From: an uncultured Bacteroidales bacterium | Lineage (GTDB): Bacteria > Bacteroidota > Bacteroidia > Bacteroidales > UBA11471 | Length of the DNA stretch: 64,000 nt | Direction of reading: 5' to 3' | NCBI GenBank assembly: GCA_944325415.1 | Contig: CALUZW010000003.1 | Span: 10,496-74,495, forward strand | Shown: positions 7,155 through 51,134 of the stretch, in pieces | Numbering within the stretch: the stretch's first letter is position 1 | Layout: every line of letters starts with the position of its first letter | Translations under genes and position numbers: made by a program | The notes under the pieces: model-generated | The model's input: the letters and a program-made list of their open reading frames with translations, nothing else | The model's database searches: none | Told to the model about the DNA's origin: nothing

Positions 7155-7417
7155 ATACAGTTGTTGAATTCCCGGCAAAGATAGGCAATCGGACAGAAAA
7201 CGCACAGAAGCGCCCGAAGTTTTTTCGGTAAATTCGCCTTTTTCTACACATTCTCCACCATACAACAGCACATCTGTCGCCGATGGTACCGGTCACGACC
7301 GCGCATTTTCTCGCGACTTGCGGCAGTCAGGCTCGATTCGTGGCACAAAAACAGGCTTTTCCATAAAAAATAACTACCTTTGTGCAGTTTTTACAAAAAC
7401 ATTATAACCTAACGATT

Positions 7418-8299
7418 ATGAAAGCATTTGTATTTCCGGGACAAGGCGCCCAATTCGTAGGCATGGGCAAAGAGCTGTACGACACCAACAGCGAAGCCAA
7501 AGCCATGTTTGAGAAAGCCAACGAGATATTAGGTTTCCGCATCACCGACCTGATGTTTGCCGGTACCGACGAAGACCTGCGTCAGACCAAGGTTACCCAA
7601 CCGGCCATCTTCCTGCACTCGGTGATTCTCGCCAAAACAATGGGCGATGCCTTCTGCCCCGAAATGGTAGCGGGCCACTCTCTCGGCGAATTCTCGGCCC
7701 TGGTTGCCGCCGGAGCCCTTTCGTTTGAAGACGGCGTGCGCCTGGTAGCTGCCCGTGCCCGCGCCATGCAGAAAGCCTGCGAGGCTACTCCCTCGACCAT
7801 GGCTGCCGTACTGGCTCTCCCCGATGAGAAAATAGAAGAGATATGCGCTTCGGTAACCGAAGGCGTTGTCGTTCCGGCCAACTACAACTGCCCGGGACAG
7901 GTCGTTATCTCGGGCGACGAAAAAGGTATCGACGCCGCTTGCGAGAAGATGCTCGCCGCCGGTGCCAAACGTGCCCTGAAACTGAAAGTAGGCGGTGCCT
8001 TCCACTCGCCCATCATGGAGCCGGCCCGTGCCGAACTGGCCGAGGCCATTGCCAACACACAGTTCTTCGAGCCCAAATGCCCCGTTTACCAAAACGTGAG
8101 CGCACAGGCTGTAACCGACCCTGCCGCCATCAAAGCCAACCTGATAGCCCAACTCACCGCTCCGGTACGCTGGACACAATCGGTGCTGAACATGATTGCC
8201 GACGGTGCCACCTCGTTTACCGAAGTAGGTCCCGGCAGCGTGCTGCAAGGCCTTATCAAGAAAATCAACAAAGAGGTAGAAACCTCGGGCGTGCAATAA
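7418..8299 (+). CDS. fabD: Malonyl-CoA:ACP transacylase
   Basis: FVFPGQGAQ, TQPAIF, GHSLGE (catalytic Ser), ANYNCPGQVV and GAFHS. Confidence 0.97.
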   Translation: MKAFVFPGQGAQFVGMGKELYDTNSEAKAMFEKANEILGFRITDLMFAGTDEDLRQTKVTQPAIFLHSVILAKTMGDAFCPEMVAGHSLGEFSALVAAGALSFEDGVRLVAARARAMQKACEATPSTMAAVLALPDEKIEEICASVTEGVVVPANYNCPGQVVISGDEKGIDAACEKMLAAGAKRALKLKVGGAFHSPIMEPARAELAEAIANTQFFEPKCPVYQNVSAQAVTDPAAIKANLIAQLTAPVRWTQSVLNMIADGATSFTEVGPGSVLQGLIKKINKEVETSGVQ

Positions 8300-8370
8300 A
8301 CCGTCCATCAACCTCTCAACGGGTCGTTGACATTCTATCCAACCCGTCGACTTTGTAAACCTTTATATCC

Positions 8371-8410
8371 GAAGGGGCATAACAAATCCAAACGATTGTT
8401 ATGCCCCTTC
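8371..8410 (+). terminator. Stem-loop after fabD
   Basis: GAAGGGGCATAACAA / TTGTTATGCCCCTTC, 15-bp stem. Confidence 0.6.
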
Positions 8411-8484
8411 AAAATTATATTGCCGGCCCGTTAGCATTGCGGCACATACAGTAGAAAAGCGTGAATCGAGACATATGAAAAACG

Positions 8485-8516
8485 AAGGCGTCGGGAAAGA
8501 AACTTCCCGACGCCTT
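8485..8516 (-). terminator. Terminator of the nuo-atp cluster
   Basis: AAGGCGTCGGGAA / TTCCCGACGCCTT followed by CGTTTTT on the minus strand, 25 nt after the nuoN stop. Confidence 0.75.
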
Positions 8517-8541
8517 ACCTGTCGTAACTATTTATCGAAAA

Positions 8542-9963
8542 TTACATTCCAAAGGAAAGAGGTACAATCGACGAGTAGATGCCGCTAATGAGGCCCACGA
8601 GCAGCACACCGAGCACACACAGCGAGATGCTGAGCTTCGAAGCTCCGTCGCTCTGAATGGTCGGTATCACACAATCGTCCTGACGGATAAACATCGCCTT
8701 CACCACCAGCAGATAGTAGTAGAGCGAGATAATGGTATTGAGCAGGGCGATGAACACCAGCACATAGAACCCTTCCTCGACGGCAGCATAGAAGATAAAG
8801 AACTTGCTGAAAAATCCGGCAAAGGGAGGAATACCGGCCAGAGAGAAAAGCGCCAGCATCAAGGCGACACTCAACTTGGGATTGGTGCGGTAGAGGCCGT
8901 TGTAATCGTCCATGTCGACCTTGCCCGTAGCGTTCTCGATAACCGAGATTACACCGAACACGGCCAGATTGGAGAATACATACACCAGCACATAATAGAT
9001 GAGCGAGGTCATACCCACGGCCGAACCGGCAATAACACCCAGCAGAATATATCCGGCTTGGGAAATCGAAGAGAAGGCCATGAAGCGTTTGAGGTTTTTC
9101 TGACGCACGGCAAAGAGGTTACCGATGGTGATGGTGATGACGATAAGTCCCCACAGTACCGGTTGCCAAACAGCGGCCACCGAAGAGAAGACCTTGAAGA
9201 GTACCACCATCAGGGCAAAGGCGGCAGCACCTTTGGAGATGACCGAGAGATAGGCCGTAATGGAGGTCGGAGCTCCCTGGTACACATCGGCCGTCCAGAG
9301 ATGGAAGGGCACGATGGAAATCTTGAATCCCATACCGGCAAGGAAAAGCACAAGGCCCACATAGAGAAGCGGCGTACCTACCAGGCTGGCAGCAATATCT
9401 TCAAAGTAGAGCGTACCCACCGCACCATAGACGAAGGAGATACCCAACAGCATGAGCGACGAGGAGAAGAGTGCCACAAAGACATACTTGGCAGCAGCCT
9501 CGTAAGAGAGCTGGTGATACTTCTCAATAGCAACAAGAGCCGTGAGCGGGAGCGATGCCATTTCAAGTCCGATGAAGAAGAGCAGGAAGTTGCCCGACGA
9601 AATCATCAGATACATACCCAGCAGGGTCATCAGCGTAAGGACATAAAACTCACCGCGACGCACCTGCATATCGGGCGACTTGGCCCACACATTTGCCTGG
9701 ATAAGCACCAGCAGTGTTCCTATGTTGAGAACGATTTTTACAATATTAATAACCGGAGATGTCTGATACATACCACCGAATGCCTCGCCCGTCGCGGGAT
9801 TGACGAAGAGGAAAGCCGTCTGCACGGCCAGCAACAGGCAGGCTACCCACGAGAAGGCCCGACGGCTCTTCTCGGTAGCGAAGGTGTCGTAGAGAAACAG
9901 GACAAGAATGACTGCCAAAAGCGACAACTCATCGCGCATCCACAAAAAGTTTGAAAAATCCAT
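8542..9963 (-). CDS. nuoN: NADH-quinone oxidoreductase subunit N
   Basis: [34 protein letters not shown] and [14 protein letters not shown]. Confidence 0.95.
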
Positions 9964-9977
9964 ATACTTTTTCTTGA

Positions 9978-11477
9978 TTAGATATATTGCAAAATACGTT
10001 CACTTATCACACTCATGCTGTCGCTGATGAGATTGGAAATCCAACCCGGAGCCATACCTATGGCGGCAACACCTACAATAAGGGTAATGGCCGAGAGACG
10101 CTCAAACCAGGCAGCATCGGTAAGCTCGCGGTGATGCTCATTCTGCACCTTACCGTAGAGCAGCTTGCCAACCACGCGCAGGATATAGACAGCGGTAATC
10201 ACAATCGATGTACAAGCCACAATGGTGAAGACACGGCGGAAGGTGTCGTCCCACTGGAACGATCCGACAAAGACAGTCATCTCGGCTACGAAGCCGCTCA
10301 ATCCGGGGAGACCCAGCGAAGCGAGACCGGCTATCACATAGGCGACCGAAAGGAAAGGCATAATCTTCATCAGACCGCCCATCTCACGAATGTCGCGGGT
10401 GTGGGTACGGCCATAAATCATACCGATGAGGGCAAAGAAGAGAGCTGTCATCAATCCGTGCGAGAGCATTTGCAGCACGGCACCCGTCATGGCTGTCGTG
10501 TTCCACATGAGCAGGGCAAAAAGCACAAGACCACAGTGGCTCACCGAAGAGTAGGCGTTGATGTATTTAAGGTCGGTCTGCACACAGGCACTGAATGCAC
10601 CGTAAACCACACTGATACCGGTAAGAATCAGGAATATCCACGACAACTCGGTGGTGGCCCAGGGCATGAGATACATGGCCACACGGAAGCAGCCGTAACC
10701 TCCCAGTTTCATGAGCACGCCGGCGTGCAACATCGACACGGCCGTGGGCGCCGAAGCATGACCGTCGGGCGACCATGTGTGGAAGGGGAACATGGCTCCC
10801 AGCACACCGAATCCCACAAAGGTAAGGGGGAAGAGATAATACTGCATCTCGTGGGGTATGGCATTGTTCTTGGCAATTTCGAGAATGTTCATGGTGAGGT
10901 TGCCGTCGGCCGAAGAGTGGAAATATATACCCAGGATACCAATCAGCAGGAGAGCCGAACCACCCATGAGCATAAGAGTCAGCTTCATGGCCGAATAGGT
11001 CTTGTTGCCACTACCCCACACGCCGATGAGCAGGTACATGGGGATAAGGGCTATCTCGTAATACATAAACATCGTAAAGAGGTTTATCGAGATGAAGAAG
11101 CCGAACACACCGATAGAAAGAAGTATCAGCCACAAGAAAAACTCTTTGGGCAGCGGGTCGATTTTCCACGAAGCGAAGACACCGGCAAAGACTACGATAG
11201 CCGAGAGCAGCAACATGGCCACCGACACACCGTCGACACCCACCGTATAATGAATGCCCAGCGGGGCGTACCACACGGTATCGGCCACGAAAAGCATTTC
11301 GGCCGTATTGCCGGCAGCACGTTCGCCCAGGAACATAAACAACACGATAAAGGCGAAGACAAGCTGCAACGACGACCCTATCACGGCAACAGTCCGTATC
11401 TGTTTCATATTCCTCGAAAGGGCCAGTCCGGCCATCATCAGCAGAGGAATAAGTACGAATAATGATAAGAAGTTCAT
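9978..11477 (-). CDS. nuoM: NADH-quinone oxidoreductase subunit M
   Basis: [29 protein letters not shown] and [12 protein letters not shown]; start at MNFLSLF. Confidence 0.95.
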
Positions 11478-11517
11478 AACTGTATTAAACTCGTTTTTTC
11501 TGTTTCTACATACTGGA

Positions 11518-13422
11518 TTAGATACAATACAACACGATGGCGGCAATAATCATGGCGCCCAGCAGGAATACGACGGCATAGGATTGCAGTCGACCCGATT
11601 GCAGACCCCGTATATGGTAAGAGGCCGATTGGGTGAGGGTAGCCATGAGGTTCATCGTACCGTCGACCACGTGACGGTCGAACCATGCGATAGGCGTGGA
11701 AATGTATCGGAATATGATTTTGTGGGTAACGAACATATAGACCTCATCGATATAGAAACGATGGTAGGCCCAGCGGTGCAACGAACTCAGCGACTCGGCC
11801 ATGCGTGCAGGCTTGTCGTTGGGTTTCATATAGAGCCATGTGGCCAGTGCAATGGCAACAACAGCGATGCAGATGCTCGTCGCAGCCACGGTCCAGTTGA
11901 GATGTATCGTGTAGGAAAGTCCGCTGGCGGTTACAAAATGACCGAAAGGTATGAAACCGGCGAAGCAGGTTACCAGAGCCAGGAACACGAGAGGTATCGA
12001 CATGGTCTTGGGAGCCTCGTGGGGGGTATGCTCGTGATGAGCCTCTTTACCCCAGAAGATGTTGAAATAGAGACGGAACATATAAAACGCCGTCAGACCG
12101 GCTACCAGCGACATCCACACGCCCCAGAAAGCGCTCTTCTCAAAAGCGGCGGCGAGAATCTCGTCTTTACTGAAAAAGCCCGAGAAGGGAGGTATACCGG
12201 CTATGGCCAGACAGGCTATAAGGAAAGTGATGTGGGTAATGGGCATATACTTGCGCAAGCCTCCCATCTCCGACATCTCGTTGGAGTGTACGGCGTGAAT
12301 AATGGCACCGGCACCGAGGAAGAGGAGAGCCTTGAACATGGCGTGGGTGAAGAGGTGGAACATCGAAGCCATGTAACCCAGCGCGCCGTGGCCATTCATC
12401 TCGGTCGTTACACCCAGAGCCACCATCATGAAGGCAATCTGCGAAATGGTAGAGAAGGCGAGAACACGCTTGATGTCGGTCTGCACACAAGCCACTACCG
12501 CTGCATAGAGAGCGGTAACAGCACCTATGACGGTGATGAAGGTCAACACCTCGGGAGTGGTTACATAAACCGGGAAGAGACGGGCTACCAGGAACACACC
12601 GGCCACCACCATCGTTGCGGCATGGATAAGGGCCGATACGGGAGTAGGACCTTCCATGGCGTCGGGCAGCCAGATGTGCAACGGGAACATGGCCGACTTA
12701 CCGGCACCACCCATGAATACAAGGGCCATGGCCCACGAGGCCACCGAGATACCGAGGAACGTCTTTCCTTCGGTGGTACCTACCAGAGAGACATCGCCGC
12801 TTGTCAAGGTAGCGAAGTCGAAGGTCTTGGTATAGTAAGAGAGCAGCAAAATACCGAGGAGGAATCCCAGGTCGGCAAAGCGGGTAACAATAAAGGCCTT
12901 CTTAGAAGCGGCAACAGCCGACTGACGGGTGTAATAGAAGCCGATGAGCAGGTAAGACGACACACCCACAAGCTCCCAGAAGATATACATCTGGAAGATA
13001 TTGGTGGCCACTACCAGACCAAGCATCGAGAAGGTGAAGAGCGAGAGAAATGCGTAGTAACGCTGGAAACCGACTTCACCGTGCATATAGCCGAGGCTGT
13101 AAAGATGCACCATCGACGAAACTGTGGTGATAACCACCAGCATCATGACCGAAATGGGGTCGAGCATGATACCCAGGTCGATGTGCAACCACTCGGTAAA
13201 GCGCAACCACTCGAAATGGTAGGGAGTCACCGTGGGATAAATGCCATCGACACGCGGCTGCATGAAATATTGAGCAGCGACGATATACGAGAGAATGGTA
13301 ATGATGAAAAGGCCCGATGTGCCTAACAATCCGGCCGTGCGATGCGACATCTTGTGGCCGCAAAGTCCGAGCGTGATAAACATCAGCATCGGCAACAACA
13401 GTATGATGTAAGAGTATTCCAT
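11518..13422 (-). CDS. nuoL: NADH-quinone oxidoreductase subunit L
   Basis: WELVG, GKSAMFPLHIWLPDAMEGPTPVSALIHAATMV and HAMFKALLF. Confidence 0.96.
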   Translation of the reverse strand: MEYSYIILLLPMLMFITLGLCGHKMSHRTAGLLGTSGLFIITILSYIVAAQYFMQPRVDGIYPTVTPYHFEWLRFTEWLHIDLGIMLDPISVMMLVVITTVSSMVHLYSLGYMHGEVGFQRYYAFLSLFTFSMLGLVVATNIFQMYIFWELVGVSSYLLIGFYYTRQSAVAASKKAFIVTRFADLGFLLGILLLSYYTKTFDFATLTSGDVSLVGTTEGKTFLGISVASWAMALVFMGGAGKSAMFPLHIWLPDAMEGPTPVSALIHAATMVVAGVFLVARLFPVYVTTPEVLTFITVIGAVTALYAAVVACVQTDIKRVLAFSTISQIAFMMVALGVTTEMNGHGALGYMASMFHLFTHAMFKALLFLGAGAIIHAVHSNEMSEMGGLRKYMPITHITFLIACLAIAGIPPFSGFFSKDEILAAAFEKSAFWGVWMSLVAGLTAFYMFRLYFNIFWGKEAHHEHTPHEAPKTMSIPLVFLALVTCFAGFIPFGHFVTASGLSYTIHLNWTVAATSICIAVVAIALATWLYMKPNDKPARMAESLSSLHRWAYHRFYIDEVYMFVTHKIIFRYISTPIAWFDRHVVDGTMNLMATLTQSASYHIRGLQSGRLQSYAVVFLLGAMIIAAIVLYCI

Positions 13423-13448
13423 AATCGTTGTTCAGTAGCGATAGTTTC

Positions 13449-13760
13449 TCAATATTTCATTTTGTCGACGTTATCGACATTGATGTTACGAATGTTCCGG
13501 TAGATGTTGATGATGATGGCGATGGCTATCGCTGTCTCGGCGGCGGCAATTGCCACGGCGAAGAGGGTGAAGAAAAAGCCTTCGAGCTGCCCGGGGAAGA
13601 GATAGCGGTTGAAAACGACAAAGTTGATGTCGACCGCGTTGAGCATGAGTTCAAGCGATATGAGAATAGCCAACAGGTTATGACGGGTTACAAAGCCGTA
13701 AACACCGGCAAAAAACATGAGGGTACTCACCACAACATAATAAATCATGGGTATTTCCAT
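13449..13760 (-). CDS. nuoK: NADH-quinone oxidoreductase subunit K
   Basis: LELMLNAVDINF and AIAAAETA; 103 aa, three transmembrane segments. Confidence 0.95.
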   Translation of the reverse strand: MEIPMIYYVVVSTLMFFAGVYGFVTRHNLLAILISLELMLNAVDINFVVFNRYLFPGQLEGFFFTLFAVAIAAAETAIAIAIIINIYRNIRNINVDNVDKMKY

Positions 13761-13768
13761 AGTATTTC

Positions 13769-14281
13769 TTATCTTTTACGGGCAATCATAATGCCTCCGA
13801 TTATACAAGCGAGTAACAGCACACTGATGGCTTCAAAGGGCAACAGATACTGATATTTGTCCATGCCCATAAGCGCATGTCCCACCGTCTTCATGTCGAG
13901 CTCGCCACCCTGGGCAAACTGCGAGGGGAAGAAGTCGTGGGTCAGGAGGGTATATCCGCAGATAGCGGCTCCCAGCACAGCGGCCAGCAGGCCCCAGGCC
14001 CGCTTGCGTGAGGAGATGCGGTCGCTCTTCTCGCCCAGTTTGCTGGTAAGCAGAATGGCAAAGACGAAAAGCACGAGAATACCTCCGGCATAAATCGTTA
14101 CCTGAACAGCTCCCAAGAAATGATAGTCGAGCTGAAAGTAATACCCGGCTGTTGCAAAAAGCACAAAAAGCAGGTAGGTTGCAGCGCGCAAGATGCGACG
14201 ACTGGTCACGGCCATAATCGAGCAGACGACAATAATTGCCGAAAGCAGGAAGAATATGACTTGATTGGCTACTTGTTCCAT
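13769..14281 (-). CDS. nuoJ: NADH-quinone oxidoreductase subunit J
   Basis: QVTIYAGGILVLFVFAILL and YLLPFEAISVLLL. Confidence 0.94.
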   Translation of the reverse strand: MEQVANQVIFFLLSAIIVVCSIMAVTSRRILRAATYLLFVLFATAGYYFQLDYHFLGAVQVTIYAGGILVLFVFAILLTSKLGEKSDRISSRKRAWGLLAAVLGAAICGYTLLTHDFFPSQFAQGGELDMKTVGHALMGMDKYQYLLPFEAISVLLLACIIGGIMIARKR

Positions 14282-14291
14282 ATCGAGAATG

Positions 14292-14753
14292 TTATTTTAA
14301 ATTTTCAGGTTTACGGTTGAGATGCTTTACCAATTTGGTACGGTCAAAGACGGCCTGTTCAAATTCGTTGGTAAATTCCAAGGCATCGTGAGGACAGGTG
14401 TTCACACACAACTGGCAGAAGACGCAGCTACCCAGATCGTAGATGTAATCATCAAGCACACGTTTGGTCTTACCGTCTTCGGTCTCGACTTTCTTGGAGA
14501 TAATCTGTATCGTGTGGTTGGGACAGTTCATCTGGCATATACCACATGCAATACATTTGTGATGGCCTTCGGCATCGAACTTTAACGTAAGTGTTGCTCT
14601 GAATCGGTCGCCTATCTTCAACGTTTCACGATTCTCGGGATACTTCTCGGTAACTTTGGGGGTAACAAACTCGGTTCCTGTTACCTTCATGCCAACAAGA
14701 AGACTCCACAGACCTTTCCAGAAATTGACAAAGTAATTTTTTAAACTTTCCAT
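14292..14753 (-). CDS. nuoI: NADH-quinone oxidoreductase subunit I (2x[4Fe-4S])
   Basis: TEKYPE, CIACGICQMNCP and CVFCQLCVNTCP; start at MESLKNY. Confidence 0.93.
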   Translation of the reverse strand: MESLKNYFVNFWKGLWSLLVGMKVTGTEFVTPKVTEKYPENRETLKIGDRFRATLTLKFDAEGHHKCIACGICQMNCPNHTIQIISKKVETEDGKTKRVLDDYIYDLGSCVFCQLCVNTCPHDALEFTNEFEQAVFDRTKLVKHLNRKPENLK

Positions 14754-14800
14754 AAATGGTAATGTAGCTCTTTCTTTTCTTTTTAGTTTATCTCTCATAT

Positions 14801-14830
14801 AAAAGTACCAGGCCGGAACCCGGTACTTTT
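14801..14830 (-). terminator. Stem-loop between atpG and nuoI (possible partial terminator)
   Basis: Minus strand AAAAGTACCGGG-ttccgg-CCTGGTACTTTT, followed by ATAT. Confidence 0.55.
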
Positions 14831-14843
14831 GTTTTTTTGGTTT

Positions 14844-15722
14844 CTATCGCACTGAACCGCCCATGATATCGAGCAGTTCGTTGGTGATTCCCTGCTGACG
14901 TAACTTGTTGTATTCGATGCGCAACTCATCAATCAACTTACCGGCATTGTCACTGGCCGTCTGCATGGCAAGAATACGGGCTCCCTGCTCCGAAGTGCGG
15001 CTCTGCAAGCAGGCCTCGATAAGCGAAGCATTGACAAAAAGCGGCAGTACCGTTTCAAAAATGGCAGCACCGTCGGGCTCATAGATATAGGGGGTAACCC
15101 GCGCCGCTGTCTTACCGGCCGATTGCATCTCTTCGACCCGAATAGGCAACAGTTGACGGGTACGGACCGTCTGCGTGGCCACACTCTTATAGTGGGTATA
15201 GATGCACTCTATCCGATCATACTCGCCTGACAAGAATGAGGCCGTCAGTTCGCCGACAAGCTGTTTCAATTCGTCGGGCGTACTCTTGGCGTGGAAATAA
15301 TCCTTGCGACAAACGGTTATTCCGGCCGTATGTTCTACCGCCGACATCACTTTCTTGCCTGCCGGATAGACATCAATGGCAAGTTGACCAGAACAGGTAG
15401 CTCGCAACTCAGACAATCGGGAGAGCAAAGCCTTGTAGAGATTGGAATTGTAGGCTCCACATAGGCCTTCGTCCGATGCCAATAAGACCAGTGCCACTCG
15501 ATGCACAGGACGTTCCTGTATCAAAGGCGACTCATACTCACGGTCGGCTTCCAACAGATTGTTGATTGTAAGCTGCAACTGTTCCCGGTACGGTGCCATG
15601 CCACGCAAAGCCTGCTCAGCCTTGCGCAACTTTGCCGAAGATATCATCTTCATGGCACCGGTTATTTTCTGGGAAGACTCTACCGAGCCGATTCTTCCCT
15701 TCAACTCGCGCATTGTCGACAT
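14844..15722 (-). CDS. atpG: F1Fo ATP synthase gamma subunit
   Basis: KITGAMKMISSAKL, SDEGLCGAYN, SEQGARILAMQTASDNA and RQQGITNELLDI. Confidence 0.96.
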   Translation of the reverse strand: MSTMRELKGRIGSVESSQKITGAMKMISSAKLRKAEQALRGMAPYREQLQLTINNLLEADREYESPLIQERPVHRVALVLLASDEGLCGAYNSNLYKALLSRLSELRATCSGQLAIDVYPAGKKVMSAVEHTAGITVCRKDYFHAKSTPDELKQLVGELTASFLSGEYDRIECIYTHYKSVATQTVRTRQLLPIRVEEMQSAGKTAARVTPYIYEPDGAAIFETVLPLFVNASLIEACLQSRTSEQGARILAMQTASDNAGKLIDELRIEYNKLRQQGITNELLDIMGGSVR

Positions 15723-15728
15723 AGCAGA

Positions 15729-17309
15729 TTATTTCTTATATCGTTTTACTACTTCTTGTGCTGTTTCCTGCAAGATGGTCTCTACCTCGGGGGTAAGTTT
15801 TCCTTCGCGCAGAGAAGACAACACGTCTTTTTCGTGACGACTCCGTAATATTTCCAGGAAATATTTTTCAAACTCGGCCACGTTCTCCAACGGCACATCG
15901 CTCAGCAGGCCTCGCGTACCGCAATACACAACGGCAATTTCTTCCTCTACGGGCATAGGTGTATATTGGGGTTGTACCAGCAGCATACTGTTCTTACGGC
16001 CTTTGTCGATAACCATGGCGGTTACGGGGTCGAGATCGCCGCCGAACTTGGTAAAGGCTTCGAGCTCACGATATTGGGCCTGGTCTATTTTCAGCGTACC
16101 GGCCACCTTCTTCATGGCTTTTACCTGGGCGTTACCGCCGACACGCGACACCGAGATACCCACATTGATGGCGGGGCGCATACCTTGGTTAAAGAGGGCG
16201 GTTTCGAGGAATATCTGTCCGTCGGTAATGGAGATGACGTTGGTGGGGATATAGGCCGAAACGTCTCCTGCCTGAGTCTCGATAATGGGCAATGCCGTGA
16301 GCGAACCTCCACCTTTTACGATAGGACGCAAAGCTTCGGGCAGGTCGTTCATGGTAGCGGCTACTGCATCGTTGTCGATAATCTTGGCAGCACGCTCCAA
16401 CAGACGGGAATGGAGATAGAAGATATCGCCGGGATAAGCTTCACGACCCGAGGGTCGGCGCAGAATCAGCGAGATTTCGCGATAGGCCACGGCCTGCTTG
16501 GAAAGGTCGTCATACACGACCAGAGCGTGACGGCCACTGTCGCGGAAATACTCTCCGATGGCGGCTCCTGCAAAGGGTGCGTAATAGCGCATCGAAGCCG
16601 AGTCGGAGGCATTAGCAGCCAACACAATGGTATAATCCATGGCACCATGCTCACGGAGGGTATTTACCAAGGTGGCTACCGAAGAGGCTTTTTGACCGAT
16701 GGCTACATAGATACAGTATACGGGGTCACCGGCCAGATAGTTCTTGCGCTGGTTGATAATGGTATCGATGGCAATGGAGGTCTTACCTATCTGGCGGTCG
16801 CCGATGATAAGCTCGCGCTGTCCACGGCCTATGGGCACCATAGAGTCAACGGCTTTTATACCTGTCTGCAACGGCTCGTTTACCGGCTGACGGAAAATAA
16901 CTCCGGGAGCCTTCCGGTCGAGAGGCAAGGTAATCGTGTCTCCGGCAATGGGACCGGCTCCGTCGATAGGGTCGCCCAATGTGCTGATGACACGGCCTAT
17001 GAGACCATCGCCTACAGGTATTGAAGCGATTTTCCCTGTACGCCGCACGGTCATGTTCTCCTTTACGGTATTGCTTTCGGCTCCCATCAAGATGACACCG
17101 ACATTGCTCTCCTCGAGGTTCATGGCCACACCGCGCACACCGTTTTCAAACTCGACCAGCTCGCTTGAACTGACATTGTCGAGCCCGAAGACGTGAGCCA
17201 CACCGTCACCCACTTCGAGTACGGTGCCGACTTCCTCAAAAGAGACCTTCGACTCGACCTCATCGAGTTGCTGTTTCAGTATATCAGAAATCTCATTAGG
17301 TTTAATCAT
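15729..17309 (-). CDS. atpA: F1Fo ATP synthase alpha subunit
   Basis: [25 protein letters not shown] and [13 protein letters not shown]. Confidence 0.98.
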
Positions 17310-17866
17310 AATCGTGTTTTGCTGTTTATTAATTTTAAACGCAATTGTTTCAGTTCCTTTTCGATAGATGCATCGAGACGTTCACCGCCCACGGTCAGCA
17401 CAAAACCGCCGATAATAGAGGAATCGATTTTATGCTCAAACTCCAAATGGGCGTCAGGGCAATGCCGGGCCACAATGCTTTCTATGCGGGAAAGGATATT
17501 CTTGTCGAGAGGGGCTGCCGTTATGATTTGGGCACAGACAATATGATTGACGTCGCGATACAGCTTCTGATACATGAGCATGATAGAGCGCAAATAGCTC
17601 TCGCGTCGTTCATGCAGGAGCAGACGTGCAAAACGAAGGTATTCTTCCGAAGAAGCGGCATCGACACCGGCAGCAGAGAGCATTAACGCCTCTTTCTGAG
17701 TTGCATTGAGCACCGGATTGAGCAGAGTCTCTTGCAAATCGGGACGGGCGATGAAACTCGCTTCTACTTGCCGAGCGGCTTCATACACGGGAAGGGTTAC
17801 ATCCTTCTCTTGCGCATACTTGAGCAAAGCCTTGGCATATCGGCGGGCTATAAGTCCTTCGTTCAT
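17306..17866 (-). CDS. atpH: F1Fo ATP synthase delta subunit
   Basis: IARRYAKAL...[11 protein letters not shown]...LDAS; lies between atpF and atpA. Confidence 0.93.
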
Positions 17867-17872
17867 ATTGGA

Positions 17873-18370
17873 TTAGTTTTTATTCTCGATATCACTTAAT
17901 AGTTTGTCGACCAACTCGGATTGTTGCTTATCTCCGGACAACTCTTTCCGCACAAGTTTTTCAGCTATCTGCAAAGCAAAATCACTGACCTGCTGACGGA
18001 ATTGCCGTTCCGACTCTTTCCGGGCCAATTCTATCGACACATTGGCGGCATCGATTATCTTCTTGGCCTCTACTGTCGCTGCCTTACGGGCCTCCTCGAT
18101 GATTTGGGTTTTCATCTGGGCCGCTTCGCGCAAGATTTCGAGCTGTTTCTGCTGAGCCTCGTTAATGAGTACACGAGCATTGTCGGTAGCATGTTCGAGC
18201 TGGCTTTTGGCCTCCTGTGCATAGGTTACGCCTTTATCGATAAGGTCGGCACGCTCGTCGACACTTTTCATAATGGCGGGCCATGCATATTTGGCCAATA
18301 TCACAAAGAGAATGACAAACACAAGGAACATCCAGAATACCAATCCGAAATCGGGGGTAAACAGTTCCAT
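17873..18370 (-). CDS. atpF: F1Fo ATP synthase subunit b
   Basis: PDFGLVFW, a single transmembrane segment, KYAWP...ER, then a coiled coil. Confidence 0.95.
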   Translation of the reverse strand: MELFTPDFGLVFWMFLVFVILFVILAKYAWPAIMKSVDERADLIDKGVTYAQEAKSQLEHATDNARVLINEAQQKQLEILREAAQMKTQIIEEARKAATVEAKKIIDAANVSIELARKESERQFRQQVSDFALQIAEKLVRKELSGDKQQSELVDKLLSDIENKN

Positions 18371-18392
18371 GGTGTATCCTTTCTACTTTTGA

Positions 18393-19764
<1,372 letters not shown>

Positions 19765-19794
19765 CTCATTTTGTTTTATAGATAAGCATCGGGC

Positions 19795-20028
19795 TTATTT
19801 GAGGCACACAACAACTCTGTTGTTGTTCACGTCTACAAATCCGCCTTCGGCTGCGAGTTTTTTTACCTCCCCTTGGCTTTCATACTCGATTTCACCGGCA
19901 GCAAGAGTCGACAAGAGTGAGGCATGGTCTTGCAGGACGGTAAACGAGCCCACCGTTCCCGGCAAAGTAACGCGGGCGACTTCGCCTTGGAACAGAACGC
20001 CTGTGGGAGAAATTATCTCGAGTGTCAT
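19795..20028 (-). CDS. atpC: F1Fo ATP synthase epsilon subunit (short form, N-terminal domain only)
   Basis: LEIISP...LPG...FTVLQDHASL...GGF; 77 aa. Confidence 0.93.
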   Translation of the reverse strand: MTLEIISPTGVLFQGEVARVTLPGTVGSFTVLQDHASLLSTLAAGEIEYESQGEVKKLAAEGGFVDVNNNRVVVCLK

Positions 20029-20048
20029 AGTGTAGACGATTTAACCGA

Positions 20049-21587
<1,539 letters not shown>

Positions 21588-22664
21588 CTAAAAATGTATA
21601 CCGAAAATGGTTATCAGCACCACAAGGAGCAGATTGACAAATCCTATGGGTACCAGATATTTCCATTCAAGGTTCAGGAGCTGGTCGATACGCAGACGGG
21701 GGAATGTCCACTTGAACCACATGATGATAAACATCACAACGGCAGTCTTTCCAAAGAACCAAACGACCGAGGGGATATAATCCATCACCTGATTGAAAGC
21801 GTCCCAGCCGCCAATGTGCAGGGGCATCCAGCCACCCAGGAAGAGAAGGCTGGCTATTCCGGCCACGATAAACATGTTCAGGTATTCTGCCAGATAATAG
21901 AATCCGAAATGGATACCCGAATATTCGGTGTGATAACCGGCCGTCAGCTCCGACTCGGCCTCGGGAAGGTCAAACGGGCCACGGTTGGTCTCGGCCGTTC
22001 CTGCGATGAGATAGATGACAAAGGCAATGATCATGGGAATGTGTCCCGTGAAAATGAACCAGCCGCGGCTTTGCAACTCAACCAACTGTGAGGTCTGCAT
22101 CGTACCGGCGAAGACAACGACGGCAAGCATCGAGAGGCCGATGGAAAGCTCGTAGCTCACCATCTGCGCGCCGCTTCGCATGGCGCCGATGAGGGTAAAC
22201 TTGTTATTACTCGACCAGCCGGCCAGGAGTATACCCAGCACACCTATCGACGAAACTGCCATGATGAAGAATACGCCGATGTTGAAATCGAGTACCTGCA
22301 ATCCGCGACCGAAAGGCATACAGCCGAACGTAAGCATCGAGGCGAGTATCACCAGATATGGGGCGAGATTGAAGAGGAATCTGTCGCTGTGCTTGATGGA
22401 AATAAGCTCCTTGATGAGGATTTTTATCATGTCGGCCACGCTCTGAAAGAGTCCGTAAGGGCCTACCCGGTTGGGACCGAGACGACACTGGAAGAAGGCA
22501 CATATCTTACGTTCGCCGTAAATCAATGCCAGGGCGATAAGTGCATATAGCAACAGGAGGGCAACCCCTATCAGCACAAACTCGACCAAAAGGGCGCCCC
22601 ACTCGGGCATATACTCTCTCAGGAAAGTGTCAATCCAGCGTGTTACTATCGAAAAATCGAACAT
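21588..22664 (-). CDS. nuoH: NADH-quinone oxidoreductase subunit H
   Basis: ERK...[16 protein letters not shown] and [27 protein letters not shown]. Confidence 0.96.
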
Positions 22665-22714
22665 ATTGTTTGCGGGTTATATTTGATTCTACTTAATAAG
22701 GTGATTTCTGGAGG

Positions 22715-24343
22715 TCAACGGTCGATATCGGGTACTACATAATCGAGCGAACCGCCGATGGTGATAAGGTCGGCTATCTTGGCTCCTCTCACGAGATGGT
22801 CTACGACACCCACCAATGCAAATCCCGGCGATACGACTTTGAGACGGTAAGGTGTCTTGTCGCCCCGGCTTTCGAGGTAGATGCCGAAAGCTCCACGCGA
22901 GGCTTCCACCTGTTTGAAGTAGCGGCCCTCGGGTACCTTGATAATGGGTTTGGTCTTGACGGCATAGTCGCCTTCGGGTATATTATCGACGAGCTGTTCG
23001 AGAATGTGAAGCGATTGCACAATCTCTTCGAGACGCACGTTGTAACGGGCATAGGAGTCGCCCTCGTGCGACAGCACTTCGTCGAACTGTACCTTGTCAT
23101 AGGCAGCATAGGGAGTGCGCTTGCGCACGTCGCAGGCCCAACCCGAGGCACGACCCGTAGGACCGGTCGCATTGTAACGTATGGCATCTTCGAGCGAAAG
23201 GTGTCCGACGCCTATCATACGGTTACGGGCGATAACATTGCCGGTAAACACTTCATTGTATTCTTTCAGGCGCGCGGGCATGATTTTGATGAATTCCTTG
23301 ACCTTGCGCTGGAAATCGGGGTGTATGTCGGCCATGACACCACCGATGGTGTTATAGTTCATCGACATGCGGGCACCGCAGGTCTCCTCAAAGATGTCGA
23401 GTACCAGCTCCCGCTCACGGAATCCGTAGAAGAAGGCGGTCAAGGCACCGAGGTCCATGCACAGGGTTGAGAAGAAGAGCAGGTGCGAAGAGATACGCAT
23501 CAACTCGTCCATCATCGTGCGGATATACTGGGCACGCTGGGGAACTTCGAGTTGCAGGGCATCTTCGATACACATGCACAGGGCGTGACGGTTCTGATGG
23601 GCCGAGAGATAATCGAGACGGTCGGTCATGTGGAGGGTCTGCGGATAGGTCATGCCTTCCCACAGTTTTTCTATACCGCGGTGTATGTAACCGCAATGCA
23701 CATCGACCTTCTTGATAATTTCACCTTCGAGAGAGGTGCGGAAACGCAATACACCGTGGGTAGCGGGGTGCTGCGGACCGATATTGACGATATAATCGTT
23801 TTTCTCAAAGATGTCGACAACTTTCTTTTCTACCTTTCCGTCAGGGCTCATGGCCAGCGAAATGGTTGTGTCGGCACACTCTTCGTTGGTCTCGGGTATG
23901 GGGTTGTTTTCCCGGCTGGTGTCGTAATCTTTACGCAGGGGGTAGCCGTTCCAGTCTTCACGGAGGAAGATGCGACGCATATCGGGGTGGCCAATAAAAC
24001 GAATACCGTAGAAGTCGTAGACCTCACGCTCTTCAAAATTGGCATTGGCCCAGATATCGCTCACCGAATAAAGTATCGGATCTTTACGGTCGGCCGTTGC
24101 GGCTTTGAGAATCACCCAATGGTTGTATTTTACCGAGTTGAGGTAGTAGACCACACCCAGCGTCTCGCCCCAGTCCATTCCGACAAGGGCCGCCAGGTTA
24201 TCAAACTGCAACTCGCCGTCGTCGTGCAAGTAACGGGCCAAGGCGGGCAGTTTCTCGGCCGGGACGGCGAAGGTAGGGTATTGACCCTCTTCATAAACAG
24301 CTTCCGGGAGGAAAGCGGCTATCTTTTCTTGTATATTTGCCAT
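22715..24343 (-). CDS. nuoCD: Fused NADH-quinone oxidoreductase subunit C/D
   Basis: EREVYDFYGI...GHPDMRRI...PLRKDY (NuoC part) followed by GPQHPATHGVLR, HRGIEK, DRLDY and C-terminal DIDR (NuoD part). Confidence 0.95.
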   Translation of the reverse strand: MANIQEKIAAFLPEAVYEEGQYPTFAVPAEKLPALARYLHDDGELQFDNLAALVGMDWGETLGVVYYLNSVKYNHWVILKAATADRKDPILYSVSDIWANANFEEREVYDFYGIRFIGHPDMRRIFLREDWNGYPLRKDYDTSRENNPIPETNEECADTTISLAMSPDGKVEKKVVDIFEKNDYIVNIGPQHPATHGVLRFRTSLEGEIIKKVDVHCGYIHRGIEKLWEGMTYPQTLHMTDRLDYLSAHQNRHALCMCIEDALQLEVPQRAQYIRTMMDELMRISSHLLFFSTLCMDLGALTAFFYGFRERELVLDIFEETCGARMSMNYNTIGGVMADIHPDFQRKVKEFIKIMPARLKEYNEVFTGNVIARNRMIGVGHLSLEDAIRYNATGPTGRASGWACDVRKRTPYAAYDKVQFDEVLSHEGDSYARYNVRLEEIVQSLHILEQLVDNIPEGDYAVKTKPIIKVPEGRYFKQVEASRGAFGIYLESRGDKTPYRLKVVSPGFALVGVVDHLVRGAKIADLITIGGSLDYVVPDIDR

Positions 24344-24361
24344 TAAAGGAAAACTTGCGGG

Positions 24362-24958
24362 TTAATCTTCGGATTCTTCTATCGGTTTCTGCTCCTGACG
24401 GTTTACGCCGCCGAAATATTTTTCGAGCTTGACTTTGCGCTGCAACTGCATCATGCCGTAAAGCATGGCTTCGGGCCGGGGCGGACAGCCGGGTATATAC
24501 ACATCGACGGGCAATATCTCGCCTACACCGTTGAGCACATGATAAGAGTTTTTGAACGGACCGCCCGAAACAGCACAACCGCCAACGGCTATGACATATT
24601 TCGGCTCGGCCATCTGGTCGTAAAGACGCCGCAGTACGGGGGCCATTTTGTGTACTATCGTGCCGGCGACCATGATAAAGTCGGCCTGACGCGGACTGGC
24701 ACGGGCCACCTCAAACCCGAATCGCGCCATGTCATAGCGCGCAGCTCCTACCGACATAAATTCGATACCGCAACAGCTGGTAGCGAACGTAAGCGGCCAG
24801 AGAGAATTGGATCGGCCCCAATTTATAACGTCGTCGAGGACCCCCATCACCACATTTGTACCGTTGGCGCGGAGCTCCTCAACCATTTTTTCGAGCGACT
24901 CATTATCCTTGAAGTCCTCGTATTTCATCGACTTTATCTTCGGTTTTTTCATTTCCAT
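24362..24958 (-). CDS. nuoB: NADH-quinone oxidoreductase subunit B
   Basis: [20 protein letters not shown] and PGCPPRPE; start at MEMKKP overlaps the nuoA stop. Confidence 0.95.
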
Positions 24959-25299
24959 TCCAATGCTCCTTTCTTCCATGCATAGGCAAGGCCGAATACA
25001 AGGATTACCAAGAAAAACAAAATGTTTACCAATCCGGCAACACCCAAATCACGGACGATAACCGCCCACGGAAAGAGAAGCACCGTCTCGACATCGAACA
25101 TCAAGAACAGAATGGCAAACAGATAATATCCCACCTTAAACTGCATCCACGATGTTCCGTGTGTGGGAATACCGCACTCATAGGCCTCTCCTTTCTGCCT
25201 GTTGTATGAGCGGGGTGAGATGAACCATGCGATGAGCAGGGCTGCCGTCACCAGCACGATGCCGGTAAGGAAGACGACTACTAACAATGACAAATTCAT
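24949..25299 (-). CDS. nuoA: NADH-quinone oxidoreductase subunit A
   Basis: YECG, FLMFDVE and WKKGALEW. Confidence 0.96.
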
Positions 25300-25651
25300 T
25301 TTACCTATATCAAACTAACAACTTGTTATTCAATACTTTGTTAAATAAACAGAAATAACGAAGCCCTTTCTGCAAGACTTCGAAAAGAATGGGTATGAAC
25401 CTCTTTTTTCAAAACTGCTTCAAAGTAACAGAATAAAATGCAGCTGGGCAAATTATTTCCTCAAAAATCGACTTTGCGAACAACTTTTTTAGCACTTCCC
25501 AAACATTTATTTACACTTCTCCGCCACATCATTTTTCTTTATTAAATAGGTGCAGCAAATTGTCTTTTTGACAAAAATACACTATCTTTGCTAAGAGTTA
25601 TCGGCACAACCCGTACCTTTATATGTTATACCGACAGAAACAACCCGTCTC

Positions 25652-26782
25652 ATGAACAACCAACCGTCTGCCTCCGAAATGAAACTATACCCATTGCTCA
25701 CCCCTCTTTCGTGGCTTTACGGGGCTGCCGTATGGGTACGCAACCAACTGTTTGACTGGAACATATTACCCACAGAGAGTTTTGAAATTCCCGTCATCAG
25801 CGTCGGAAACATTACGGTCGGAGGCACCGGAAAAACACCCCACATCGAGCATCTCATACGCGCACTCTCGGAGTCGTCGTTCAAGATAGCGGTTCTGAGC
25901 CGCGGATACAAACGGCACACGCGGGGGTTCAGGCTGGTCACCATGTCGTCGACCGCTGCCGAGGTAGGCGATGAGCCGTTACAAATCAAGCACAAGTTTC
26001 CGACGGCCGTCGTCGCAGTCGACGCCAACCGCCGTCGCGGGATACGCAAGCTCATGGAACAAGCGCCCGACATCGACCTCGTCCTGCTCGACGACGCCTA
26101 CCAGCACCGCTATGTCACCCCCTCGATGTCGATACTCCTCACCAGCTACGAACGCATGATTTACGACGACAAGCTGCTGCCCGCCGGCAGGCTGAGAGAA
26201 CCTGTCGACGAAAAGTCGCGCGCCAACATCGTCATCGTCACCAAGTGCCCCGAAACGCTCAAACCCATCGACTACCGGCTGCTGGCCAAACACCTCAACC
26301 TCTACCCCTACCAGAGCCTCTACTTCACCAGCCTCCTCTACGACGAGCTGAAAGCCGTATTCCCGGCCGAGAACAGCCGGCGCATCACCGTAGAACAACT
26401 GCGCGAAGAGCCCGACGAGGTACTGCTCGTCGCCGGTATCGCCTCACCCGAACTCTTTGCCGGATACATCGGGCAATACACCACCCACACACGGTTGTGG
26501 AACTTCGGCGACCACCACGAATTCTCCTCCCGCGACCTGCGCAAAATCGAGAAGTGGATAGCCTCGGCCGACGAAAACGGCCGCCATGGATACGTCATCG
26601 TAACCGAAAAAGATGCCGCCCGCCTGCTCCACAGCCCGAAAGTTTCGCCGCTGCTGAAAAGCCGGCTCTATTACCTGCCCCTGCGCATACACTTCATGCT
26701 CGGACAGGAAAGCGCATTCAACCAGCAAGTCAAGGAATCTGTCGTGCGTTTCCGCCGGCAGATGATTCAGAAGAAAAAATAA
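25652..26782 (+). CDS. lpxK: Tetraacyldisaccharide 4'-kinase
   Basis: VGNITVGGTGKTP, LSRGY, GDEP, LDDAYQH, LLPAGRLRE and TEKDA; TATCTTTG promoter at 25583. Confidence 0.95.
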   Translation: MNNQPSASEMKLYPLLTPLSWLYGAAVWVRNQLFDWNILPTESFEIPVISVGNITVGGTGKTPHIEHLIRALSESSFKIAVLSRGYKRHTRGFRLVTMSSTAAEVGDEPLQIKHKFPTAVVAVDANRRRGIRKLMEQAPDIDLVLLDDAYQHRYVTPSMSILLTSYERMIYDDKLLPAGRLREPVDEKSRANIVIVTKCPETLKPIDYRLLAKHLNLYPYQSLYFTSLLYDELKAVFPAENSRRITVEQLREEPDEVLLVAGIASPELFAGYIGQYTTHTRLWNFGDHHEFSSRDLRKIEKWIASADENGRHGYVIVTEKDAARLLHSPKVSPLLKSRLYYLPLRIHFMLGQESAFNQQVKESVVRFRRQMIQKKK

Positions 26783-49814: not shown

Positions 49815-51086
49815 ATGAAAATTCGCCTTATTGCCATGTTGGCTATCATGTTGCTCGTTTTCGACGCATCAGCCAAAGTGAAGAAGAGCAAGAAAACACA
49901 GAAAGAGACCACCGAACAACAAAGCACCCCTTCTGAGATTACCATCACAGGAAAAGTGCAATTTACGTATAAAGGATACTGGGACTATGACAAACCGGCA
50001 CCTGAGTTCAAAATGACAGTATATCAATATGAAGGCACCCAAAAGAAAGTATATGCCGAAGCTGATATCGACGAAAACAATGAATACACCTTGACCCTCC
50101 CCATTGAAACGCCGGGCGTCTACACAGTAGACTGTGGACATTGGCAATCGGTTCGTGTCTGGGGTGAAGACGAAGACCTCACCATCAACTTCCGCGGATA
50201 CGATACGGCACGGATTAAAATTAAGAATCCCCCTTACGTCTATATCCAGGGTGGCCCCAAAAACGAATTGATGAACCAGTACAACTTCTGCAACTACCGT
50301 AGCTATCAGGCCATGATTGCCATATCCAAAGCGATATACAATGCCAAGACCGATGAAGTAACACGCAAACAGTTGAGCGATGCCCTCTACGGATACAACA
50401 GCGACGATATGTCAGCCCGCATGCGTTACCTCGTAGAGCATAATGCAACGACAACCAGTGTACTGGCGCTCTTGCCCGGACTGAACCAGGAAAACGACAA
50501 GGAGCTTATAGACAAGACATTGCAACAACTCGAAGCTGCATATCCCGGCTATGCTCCTATCCAGGCCTACAAAGACAAGGTAGCCAAGGAGAAAGCACAA
50601 CGCGAACGTCTCAACAACGGCAATCCCGCTCCCGACTTCACCTATCCGCAAATCAACGGCAAGGAACTTTCGCTGTCCGACCTCAAAGGTAAAATCGTAC
50701 TGGTAGACTTCTGGGCTTCATGGTGCGGACCGTGCCGCAAAGAGATTGTCAACCTCAAAAAATACTATGAGGAGTTCAAAGACAAAGGGGTCGAGTTCCT
50801 GAGCGTATCAATCGATGCCGACAAGGATGCCTGGCTCAAAGCTGCCGAAGAAGAGAATATGCCTTGGCTGCAAATGCACGCCACCGATGGCGGAAAGAAA
50901 CTGATGAGCGACTATCAGTTTGGTGGAATACCCTTCATCGTACTCGTCGATGCCAACGGTAACCTCTATGCCAAAGGCTTGCGTGGAGAAGCTATCCGCG
51001 AAGCCATACAGAACGCGCTCAAAGGCGTCGCTCCCCAAAAACCGGCACCCCGCAAATCCATCTCCATGGGTGCCATGTCGATGTAA
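49815..51086 (+). CDS. Exported TlpA-like thiol-disulfide oxidoreductase with Met-rich C-terminal tail
   Basis: Signal peptide MKIRLIAM; APDF, VDFWASWCGPC and GIP; promoter TATCTTTG at 49724. Confidence 0.88.
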   Translation: MKIRLIAMLAIMLLVFDASAKVKKSKKTQKETTEQQSTPSEITITGKVQFTYKGYWDYDKPAPEFKMTVYQYEGTQKKVYAEADIDENNEYTLTLPIETPGVYTVDCGHWQSVRVWGEDEDLTINFRGYDTARIKIKNPPYVYIQGGPKNELMNQYNFCNYRSYQAMIAISKAIYNAKTDEVTRKQLSDALYGYNSDDMSARMRYLVEHNATTTSVLALLPGLNQENDKELIDKTLQQLEAAYPGYAPIQAYKDKVAKEKAQRERLNNGNPAPDFTYPQINGKELSLSDLKGKIVLVDFWASWCGPCRKEIVNLKKYYEEFKDKGVEFLSVSIDADKDAWLKAAEEENMPWLQMHATDGGKKLMSDYQFGGIPFIVLVDANGNLYAKGLRGEAIREAIQNALKGVAPQKPAPRKSISMGAMSM

Positions 51087-51134
51087 AACCCTACAAAATC
51101 ACAAACCAATAACCCTTTAATTTTAATCTTACTT

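Follow-up and report, generated by a model that had tools for sequence, protein, structure and literature searches.

The window analyzed here is a 64,000 nucleotide (nt) stretch of an uncultured Bacteroidales bacterium (assembly GCA_944325415.1, contig CALUZW010000003.1, positions 10,496 to 74,495), in which a complete F1Fo ATP synthase gene block, atpDCBEFHAG, is nested between nuoH and nuoI of an operon for a complex I-like enzyme (positions 8542-25299). This nesting is an old, inherited and clade-wide gene order of two large gut families, not a new kind of system. In the proposed explanation, a complete stand-alone atpDCBEFHAG cluster would have moved once into the nuoH|nuoI spacer, in an ancestor shared by the Barnesiella/Coprobacter/Caccoplasma group and the Muribaculaceae (S24-7), and the window would hold an inherited copy of that ancestral arrangement. 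The 18 genes would most likely form one transcription unit in this genome, running from a conserved Bacteroidetes-type promoter before nuoA to a hairpin after nuoN, with the atp block no longer having a recognizable promoter of its own. The outcome would be that the complex I-like proton-pumping enzyme and the F1Fo ATP synthase are expressed together, in an arrangement that is hard to undo and whose long conservation would need no special coupling. The probability of this explanation as a whole (relocation, one transcription unit and lock-in) is put at roughly 0.6. Its structural and evolutionary part is nearly certain, and transcription from a single promoter in this genome is considered probable.

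Gene content of the nested cluster

The genes nuoA-B-CD-H, atpD-C-B-E-F-H-A-G and nuoI-J-K-L-M-N were found as 18 consecutive open reading frames (ORFs) on the minus strand, all of which matched the expected family in a Pfam profile search. Ahead of the insertion lie nuoA (24949..25299; 116 amino acids (aa); PF00507, E 3.6e-37), nuoB (24362..24979; 205 aa; PF01058, E 1.1e-29), a fused nuoCD (22715..24343; 542 aa; PF00329 and PF00346) and nuoH (21588..22664; 358 aa; PF00146, E 2.3e-117). Behind it are nuoI (14292..14798; 168 aa counted from the first ATG; 4Fe-4S dicluster families), nuoJ (13769..14281; 170 aa; PF00499), nuoK (13449..13760; 103 aa; PF00420), nuoL (11518..13422; 634 aa; PF00361 and PF00662), nuoM (9978..11546; 522 aa; PF00361) and nuoN (8542..9963; 473 aa; PF00361).

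The inserted block comprises atpD for F1 beta (20049..21575; 508 aa; PF00006, PF02874 and PF22919), atpC for F1 epsilon (19795..20028; 77 aa; PF02823), atpB for Fo a (18670..19764; 364 aa; PF00119 at residues 124-342), atpE for Fo c (18393..18659; PF00137, with c-subunit matches among PDB sequences), atpF for Fo b (17873..18370; 165 aa; PF00430), atpH for F1 delta (17306..17866; 186 aa; PF00213), atpA for F1 alpha (15729..17309; 526 aa; PF00006, PF00306 and PF02874) and atpG for F1 gamma (14844..15722; 292 aa; PF00231, E 4.8e-83). The layout described in the initial annotation, with eight atp genes between nuoH and nuoI in a run of 18 co-oriented genes and a gap of only 12 nt between the end of nuoH (21588) and the start of atpD (21575), is thus borne out by the ORF list and the Pfam matches. 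All spacers within the cluster are at most 90 nt and, apart from atpG-nuoI, neighboring genes either overlap or are separated by at most 50 nt; therefore nothing else is encoded inside it. The guanine plus cytosine (GC) content is even over the whole cluster.

By Pfam the 11-subunit set is complete, consisting of NuoA, B, C, D and H-N, with C and D fused. NuoE, NuoF and NuoG were not found among the 18 ORFs of the cluster, and PF01257 (NuoE-type) and PF10589 (NuoF-type) gave no matches in the 83% complete genome of this organism, in which NuoG was not searched separately. As judged from sequence, the nuo part of the cluster is an 11-subunit, 'headless' complex I-like operon lacking NuoEFG.

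The F-type ATP synthase is likewise complete by Pfam (alpha, beta, gamma, delta, epsilon, a, b and c), and its c subunit matches the solved F-type c rings. The Na+-site motif of c subunits consists of Gln in helix 1 and of Glu-Ser/Thr together with Tyr in helix 2. The c subunit of the window, which contains the stretches GIGKIG and ALVEGVALF, does not have this signature, suggesting H+ as the coupling ion. NqrA is also present in the genome.

Distribution of the arrangement

Three samples were used to follow the gene order among relatives. In the first, a NuoH search restricted to one genome per species, nuoH was followed by atpD in 60 of 80 related loci, with the whole atp block and then nuoI wherever the contig allowed; in the remaining 20, nuoH was followed directly by nuoI. 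The nested loci include a single-contig chromosome of 2.85 Mb (L001) and the cultured Coprobacter secundus strain 177 (L016). According to the record titles they belong to Caccoplasma, Coprobacter, Barnesiella, Gallibacteroides, Muribaculaceae, Amulumruptor and Sodaliphilus, and some stand under loose labels such as 'Prevotellaceae' or 'Porphyromonadaceae'. Canonical loci are labeled Bacteroidaceae, Phocaeicola, Dysgonomonas, Draconibacterium or just Bacteroidales. The nearest named relatives of the window carry the labels Caccoplasma, Porphyromonadaceae or Coprobacter, not S24-7, and over the relatives the divergence of the atp proteins parallels that of the nuo proteins.

The second sample was centered on a Muribaculaceae NuoH and shares some contigs with the first. 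It showed nuoH followed by atpD in 77 of 78 loci, the remaining locus stopping at a contig end, and the full order in all 65 loci holding both nuoH and nuoI.

The third sampled the order evenly, with 401 genomes and coordinates tabulated by hand; NuoH was detected in 164 and NuoI in 150 of them. The nested order was seen on one contig in 22 genomes (nuoH and nuoI 6.67-7.24 kb apart) and in two more was split by a contig end, both ends being fetched and confirmed. The canonical order (nuoI at most 468 nt from nuoH) was seen in 120 genomes, and six could not be assigned. The 24 nested genomes, out of 144 that could be resolved, fall into seven anonymized family codes (f1, f21, f28, f63, f104, f105 and f135), and no nested order occurred under any other family code among the genomes of this sample. 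No reversion to the canonical order was detected among the loci examined. The arrangement is widespread, and the initial annotation had named this, together with prior documentation, as telling against its novelty.

Three of the Muribaculaceae-like nested loci come from records titled Agathobacter rectalis, Bacteroides fragilis and Wujia chipingensis (L133, L134 and L136). Their NuoH is 80% identical to that of L060, and the records are probably mislabeled or mis-binned.

Origin of the nested order

A tree of concatenated NuoB, NuoCD and NuoH (IQ-TREE, LG+G4, quick search) divides 61 nested from 20 canonical rows at a single branch, with a support of 99 in the Shimodaira-Hasegawa-like approximate likelihood ratio test (SH-aLRT). 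When 19 genomes were added, picked for a similarity to the window matching that of the Muribaculaceae, one branch (SH-aLRT 99) again separated the nested rows, now 66, from the canonical ones, now 34, corresponding to one change of state. The search for nuoH-atpD and atpG-nuoI adjacency proposed in the initial annotation, run within the order, thus put all nested rows on one side of one branch. Since nuoH and nuoI are adjacent in general, the nested state is taken to be the derived one.

Loci labeled Muribaculaceae have exactly the gene order of the window and stand with it on one branch of the Nuo tree, and on this quickly searched gene tree the arrangement in the window and that in S24-7 share descent. 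The genome tree of Ormerod et al. 2016 agrees with the Nuo tree: in the part of the paper available (PMC4936053), Barnesiella and Coprobacter are the closest characterized relatives of S24-7.

A stand-alone atp cluster in the order atpDCBEFHAG is present in all five canonical relatives inspected (G251, G132, G091, G019 and G171; in G019 it ends with the contig after atpA). Its gene order is that of the nested block, and the AtpD proteins are 72-81% identical to that of the window; G251 also shares the compact atpC-atpB spacing. Monophyly of the nested atp genes was not rejected in the approximately unbiased (AU) test (p-AU 0.66), the constrained tree being better by 11 log-likelihood units. 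On this comparison the nested atp genes are native Bacteroidales genes that were relocated, not imported, because the relatives hold clusters of the same order and the AU test keeps the nested rows together. The free quick tree of AtpD and AtpA had placed G251 inside the nested group; this placement is not read as transfer or reversion of its atp genes, as the constrained tree was the better one in the AU test.

As the initial annotation had stated, no mobile-element remnant is visible at either junction. There is no room for one, because every spacer is 90 nt or less; repeats and target-site duplications were not specifically searched for at the junctions.

Two side observations concern the canonical relatives. 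In G251 (loci L086 and L092; AtpD 81%), atp (26129 onward, plus strand) and nuo (nuoH 50432-51505, minus strand) share a contig, with atpD and nuoH about 23 kb apart; this proximity may be a relic or chance. In addition, L092 (G251) and L093 (G131) have the same family code, f131, and lie in different major canonical clades of the NuoB, NuoCD and NuoH tree, which hints that nuo operons have been exchanged horizontally within the order or that the family code is heterogeneous.

Transcription signals and junctions

Bacteroides promoters consist of TAnnTTTG at -7 and TTTG near -33; mismatches are tolerated by Bacteroidetes promoters, and the -33 element is weak (PMC7366714). A predicted promoter of this sigma-ABfr type was located about 120 nt upstream of nuoA (25421..25452, minus strand), with TTTG at 25452-25449, a 20-nt spacer and the -7 box TTACTTTG at 25428-25421. 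The block AATAATTTG-N~20-TT(A/C/T)CTTTG is conserved in 9/9 aligned close relatives, in intergenic DNA that has otherwise diverged.

Stand-alone atp clusters, unlike the block in the window, have their own promoter, a perfect TAnnTTTG lying 49-88 nt upstream of atpD in three of four, and their own downstream hairpins. In the window, no perfect TAnnTTTG was found on the coding strand before atpD or nuoI. Counted within 150 nt upstream of the gene across nested loci, the perfect motif occurs before nuoA in 18 of 58, before atpD in 8 of 61 and before nuoI in 0 of 50. A scan for sigma-70-type promoters gave 26 sites against 19.4 expected and is uninformative for the promoter type of Bacteroidetes.

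At the downstream end, a terminator-like hairpin with a 14-bp stem and a T run (8485..8516, minus strand) lies between nuoN and the convergent fabD-like gene. The sole match in an Rfam scan of 8000-26000 (E<=0.1) was to HIV_FS2, on this terminal hairpin (8484-8517); it was below threshold and was treated as chance.

The upstream junction is the 12-nt nuoH-atpD spacer (21576..21587, minus strand), which varies from 12 to 167 nt over 61 nested rows. At the downstream junction, the stop codon of atpG is at 14844-14846 and the first ATG of nuoI at 14798. A second ATG, at 14753, is better conserved, and the start of nuoI more likely lies there because NuoI of the relatives aligns only from about residue 15 and the sequence immediately before this ATG is conserved. 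The atpG-nuoI spacer is therefore probably 90 nt.

This spacer contains a terminator-like 13-bp stem-loop followed by UUUUAUAU (14801..14830, minus strand). It folds with -18 kcal/mol (z -3.2), and 0 of 200 shuffled sequences fold as well. The hairpins found after atpG in relatives are unrelated to each other in sequence. In 18 of 49 relatives the atpG-nuoI spacer folds worse than -9 kcal/mol, and in 7 of these 18 the conserved part of nuoI follows just 6-10 nt after the atpG stop. The hairpin may be a leaky terminator, a remnant of an atp terminator or a structure that stabilizes the messenger RNA (mRNA). It is probably a remnant of the terminator of the once independent atp operon, which seems to have been tolerated or to be leaky in some lineages and to have been deleted in others. 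In the window it would probably be read through, and it may trim the message level of nuoI-N.

RNA-library contigs

Among the sequencing runs listed as containing the stretch, 10 of 20 were recorded as RNA, and four of these, from four studies, were compared with positions 8000-26000. The nuoH|atpD junction is crossed in one run (X1) by a contig covering 20967-25388. The atpG|nuoI junction is crossed in two runs from two studies, by a contig of X1 covering 12688-16514, which includes the hairpin, and by a contig of X13 covering 14670-14938. These contigs are compatible with read-through transcription and are no proof of single molecules or of an RNA origin.

Upstream of nuoA, contigs of all four libraries end within 25364-25401, at a distance of 20-57 nt downstream from the predicted -7 box. 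The contig of X1 ends at 25388 beside adapter sequence, and 25389-25610 is not covered in X1. Uncovered contig stretches prove nothing; these stops at most hint at a transcript start and do not count as evidence of one. A 9-bp hairpin from a listing of terminator-like sites (25359..25382, minus strand), in the predicted 5' leader of nuoA, lies immediately downstream of where the contigs stop.

The depths of the X1 contigs were 26.6 (nuoA-H), 26.7 (atp), 20.8 (atpA-nuoL) and 13-16 (nuoL-N); with one figure per contig these cannot rank genes, and they were not used. Inside atpD, at 20640-21120 on the minus strand, many loose-ended contigs of other organisms attach in all four RNA libraries and inflate the depth (to 274 in X10). 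This pile-up falls on the nucleotide-binding part of the beta subunit, which is highly conserved, and is not a feature of the locus.

One transcription unit or several

The initial annotation had proposed that the whole cluster is transcribed from one promoter, and this claim stands in part. In its favor are the conserved promoter TTTG-N20-TTACTTTG before nuoA, the lack of a perfect internal motif in the window and the contigs that bridge both junctions; the terminator-like hairpin after atpG and the fact that the contigs show neither strand nor transcript ends keep this support short of proof.

Several observations weigh against the explanation preferred here. The -7 box before nuoA in the window has one mismatch to TAnnTTTG, and degenerate promoters inside nuoH of the window are possible. 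The eight nested loci with a perfect motif before atpD include L030, L032 and L034, whose 59-nt spacer contains TAATTTTG, and some lineages may transcribe atp separately. The hairpin after atpG resembles an intrinsic terminator, similar hairpins (-9 kcal/mol or lower) are found in the spacers of 31 of 49 relatives, and such recurrence would be odd if they had no effect. The RNA-library sequences are assembled contigs without strand, ends or reliable depth, from libraries that may contain DNA. The trees are quick gene trees, unrooted and without an outgroup, with polarity resting on the canonical order being general; the survey covers the order, not the whole phylum; and the genome itself (2.17 Mb in 28 contigs) is 83% complete.

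These points can be assembled into a division of the cluster into three transcription units, with nuoA-H transcribed from the promoter before nuoA, atpD-G from a degenerate promoter in the 3' end of nuoH and stopping at the atpG hairpin, and nuoI-N from an unrecognized promoter in the 45-90-nt spacer. The recurrence of hairpins after atpG, the perfect TAnnTTTG before atpD in some nested loci and the tolerance of Bacteroidetes promoters for mismatches and a weak -33 element (PMC7366714) would all fit such a division. However, the window has no perfect coding-strand motif before atpD or nuoI, and none of the 50 nested loci has one before nuoI. The nuoH-atpD spacer of the window is just 12 nt long, the 6-10 nt between the atpG stop and conserved nuoI in 7 of 49 relatives leave no room for a terminator or promoter, and both junctions are crossed by RNA-library contigs. 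Three separate units are accordingly regarded as unlikely in this genome.

Conservation of the arrangement

A whole-genome tblastn search found a single nuo set and a single F-type atp set in the assembly of this organism, and one AtpG per genome was found in 5/5 high-quality nested genomes. The check for a V/A-type ATPase that the initial annotation had proposed was negative: V_ATPase_I was absent, at E<=1e-3, from all six nested genomes searched, including that of the window. In the order sample, at E<=1e-10, it was found in 0 of 24 nested genomes and in 74 of 401 genomes overall, a contrast that is a lower bound because this threshold was too strict; the B. thetaiotaomicron control was detected at the default threshold and missed at 1e-10. 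No rotary ATPase other than the nested atp block was found in these genomes. V-type subunit I is present in the nearest canonical groups (f20, f131 and f91) and was found in no nested genome; loss of the V-type enzyme may have accompanied the nesting.

In the explanation preferred here the arrangement would be hard to undo, because the atp block is the only rotary ATPase found and nuoI-N have no promoter motif. Selection for physical or assembly coupling is another way to account for its retention, through co-translational insertion from one mRNA, placement of pump and synthase side by side, a supercomplex or a local proton circuit; this reading includes the headless complex I as the obligatory primary generator of proton motive force in Barnesiellaceae and Muribaculaceae. 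That the order has been strictly kept since the two families split, none of the examined loci having reverted, would suit it, as would the nested atp set being the only rotary ATPase found. Yet dependence on one promoter explains the conservation equally well, the junction spacers and hairpins vary freely among lineages, and Pfam revealed no extra domains in the cluster proteins, making coupling of this kind very improbable.

Although the source is an 83% complete draft in 28 contigs, an assembly or binning artefact or a recent foreign insertion in this one genome is refuted by the recurrence of this order in 60 of 80 related loci from many independent assemblies, including single-contig genomes and the cultured Coprobacter isolate, by the parallel divergence of atp and nuo proteins, the even GC content and the lack of a second atp or nuo copy, and by RNA-library contigs of other studies that reproduce both junctions.

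Comparison with known systems

The initial annotation knew of no described case, a statement that has to be withdrawn. Ormerod et al. 2016 (Microbiome 4:36) reported, for 26 genomes of the S24-7 family, an ATP synthase integrated within the complex I locus (PMC4936053). Their complex I has 11 of 14 subunits, without NuoEFG, and S24-7 genomes with an incomplete complex I consequently have incomplete ATP synthases (PMC4936053). In S24-7 ('Homeothermaceae', Muribaculaceae), as in the window, a single locus therefore combines an F-type ATP synthase with a complex I of 11 subunits that lacks NuoEFG.

The nesting is not new, being in print for this sister family as a passing remark. In the part of the paper available, the remark takes one sentence and comes without the insertion site, an analysis of transcription or the arrangement in Barnesiella and Coprobacter (PMC4936053). 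Searches of the full-text literature returned no report of the nesting besides this one. The current study adds the exact nuoH|nuoI insertion site, the extension to the Barnesiella/Coprobacter/Caccoplasma group, the promoter block before nuoA, the lack of a motif before atpD and nuoI, the atpG hairpin and the junction-bridging RNA contigs. The discovery is modest because the arrangement is already in print and clade-wide.

In Bacteroides the two gene sets are separate, as the initial annotation had stated: the Bacteroidaceae-labeled loci of canonical order all have nuoH-nuoI, and the nuo genes of B. fragilis (BF638R_0850-0841) are described in the accessible text of Ito et al. 2020 as one contiguous operon (PMC7002350). 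Like the window, B. fragilis has nuoA, nuoB, a fused nuoCD and nuoH-N in the same internal order and no nuoEFG. Unlike in the window, the Bacteroides nuo operon is uninterrupted and atp lies elsewhere. The same text reports that the B. fragilis operon is poorly expressed in rich medium and that the electron donor of the enzyme is unknown (PMC7002350). In the nested clade, by contrast, a single promoter would mean that atp can be expressed only when transcription runs through nuoA-H. Several of the genomes with stand-alone atp clusters also carry V-type ATPase subunit I.

Outside the Bacteroidales, an 11-subunit complex I operon adjoins the atp gene cluster in the Bacillus cereus group, as described in the available part of Moparthi and Hagerhall 2011 (PMC3144371). 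As in the window, a headless complex I operon and atp are chromosomal neighbors there; unlike in the window, the two are adjacent and not nested, the lineage is unrelated and the event is independent.

In Muribaculaceae and Barnesiellaceae, which are abundant in the gut, the sole rotary ATP synthase seems to rely on transcription started at nuoA and, if this is true, the complex I-like enzyme would be made whenever the ATP synthase is made. That the headless complex I and the only ATP synthase are expressed together in two gut families is thus a testable prediction, and the contrast with the poorly expressed nuo genes of B. fragilis provides a natural experiment. Cultured organisms in which the role of the enzyme can be asked are certain for Coprobacter and probable for Barnesiella and Muribaculum. 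The locus is also a clean example of an essential operon lodged in another and long kept, of use for studying how nesting is tolerated (promoter loss, a leaky terminator, stoichiometry).

Flanking genes and further observations

Both flanks of the cluster are unrelated housekeeping genes. On the upstream side is a divergent lpxK (25652-26782, plus strand), and on the downstream side the convergent fabD-like gene (7382-8299, plus strand), which encodes an Acyl_transf_1 protein.

The atpE ORF as listed begins with TTG, and an in-frame ATG lies 9 nt further downstream. The epsilon subunit, with 77 aa, consists of the N-terminal beta-sandwich domain only and is missing the C-terminal helical part of many bacterial epsilons; matches to atpC are equally short in the stand-alone atp clusters of the relatives. 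In the a subunit, about 120 N-terminal residues precede the Pfam domain. A gap of about 400-440 nt separates the atpC and atpB matches in three canonical relatives, at the place corresponding to this N-terminus.

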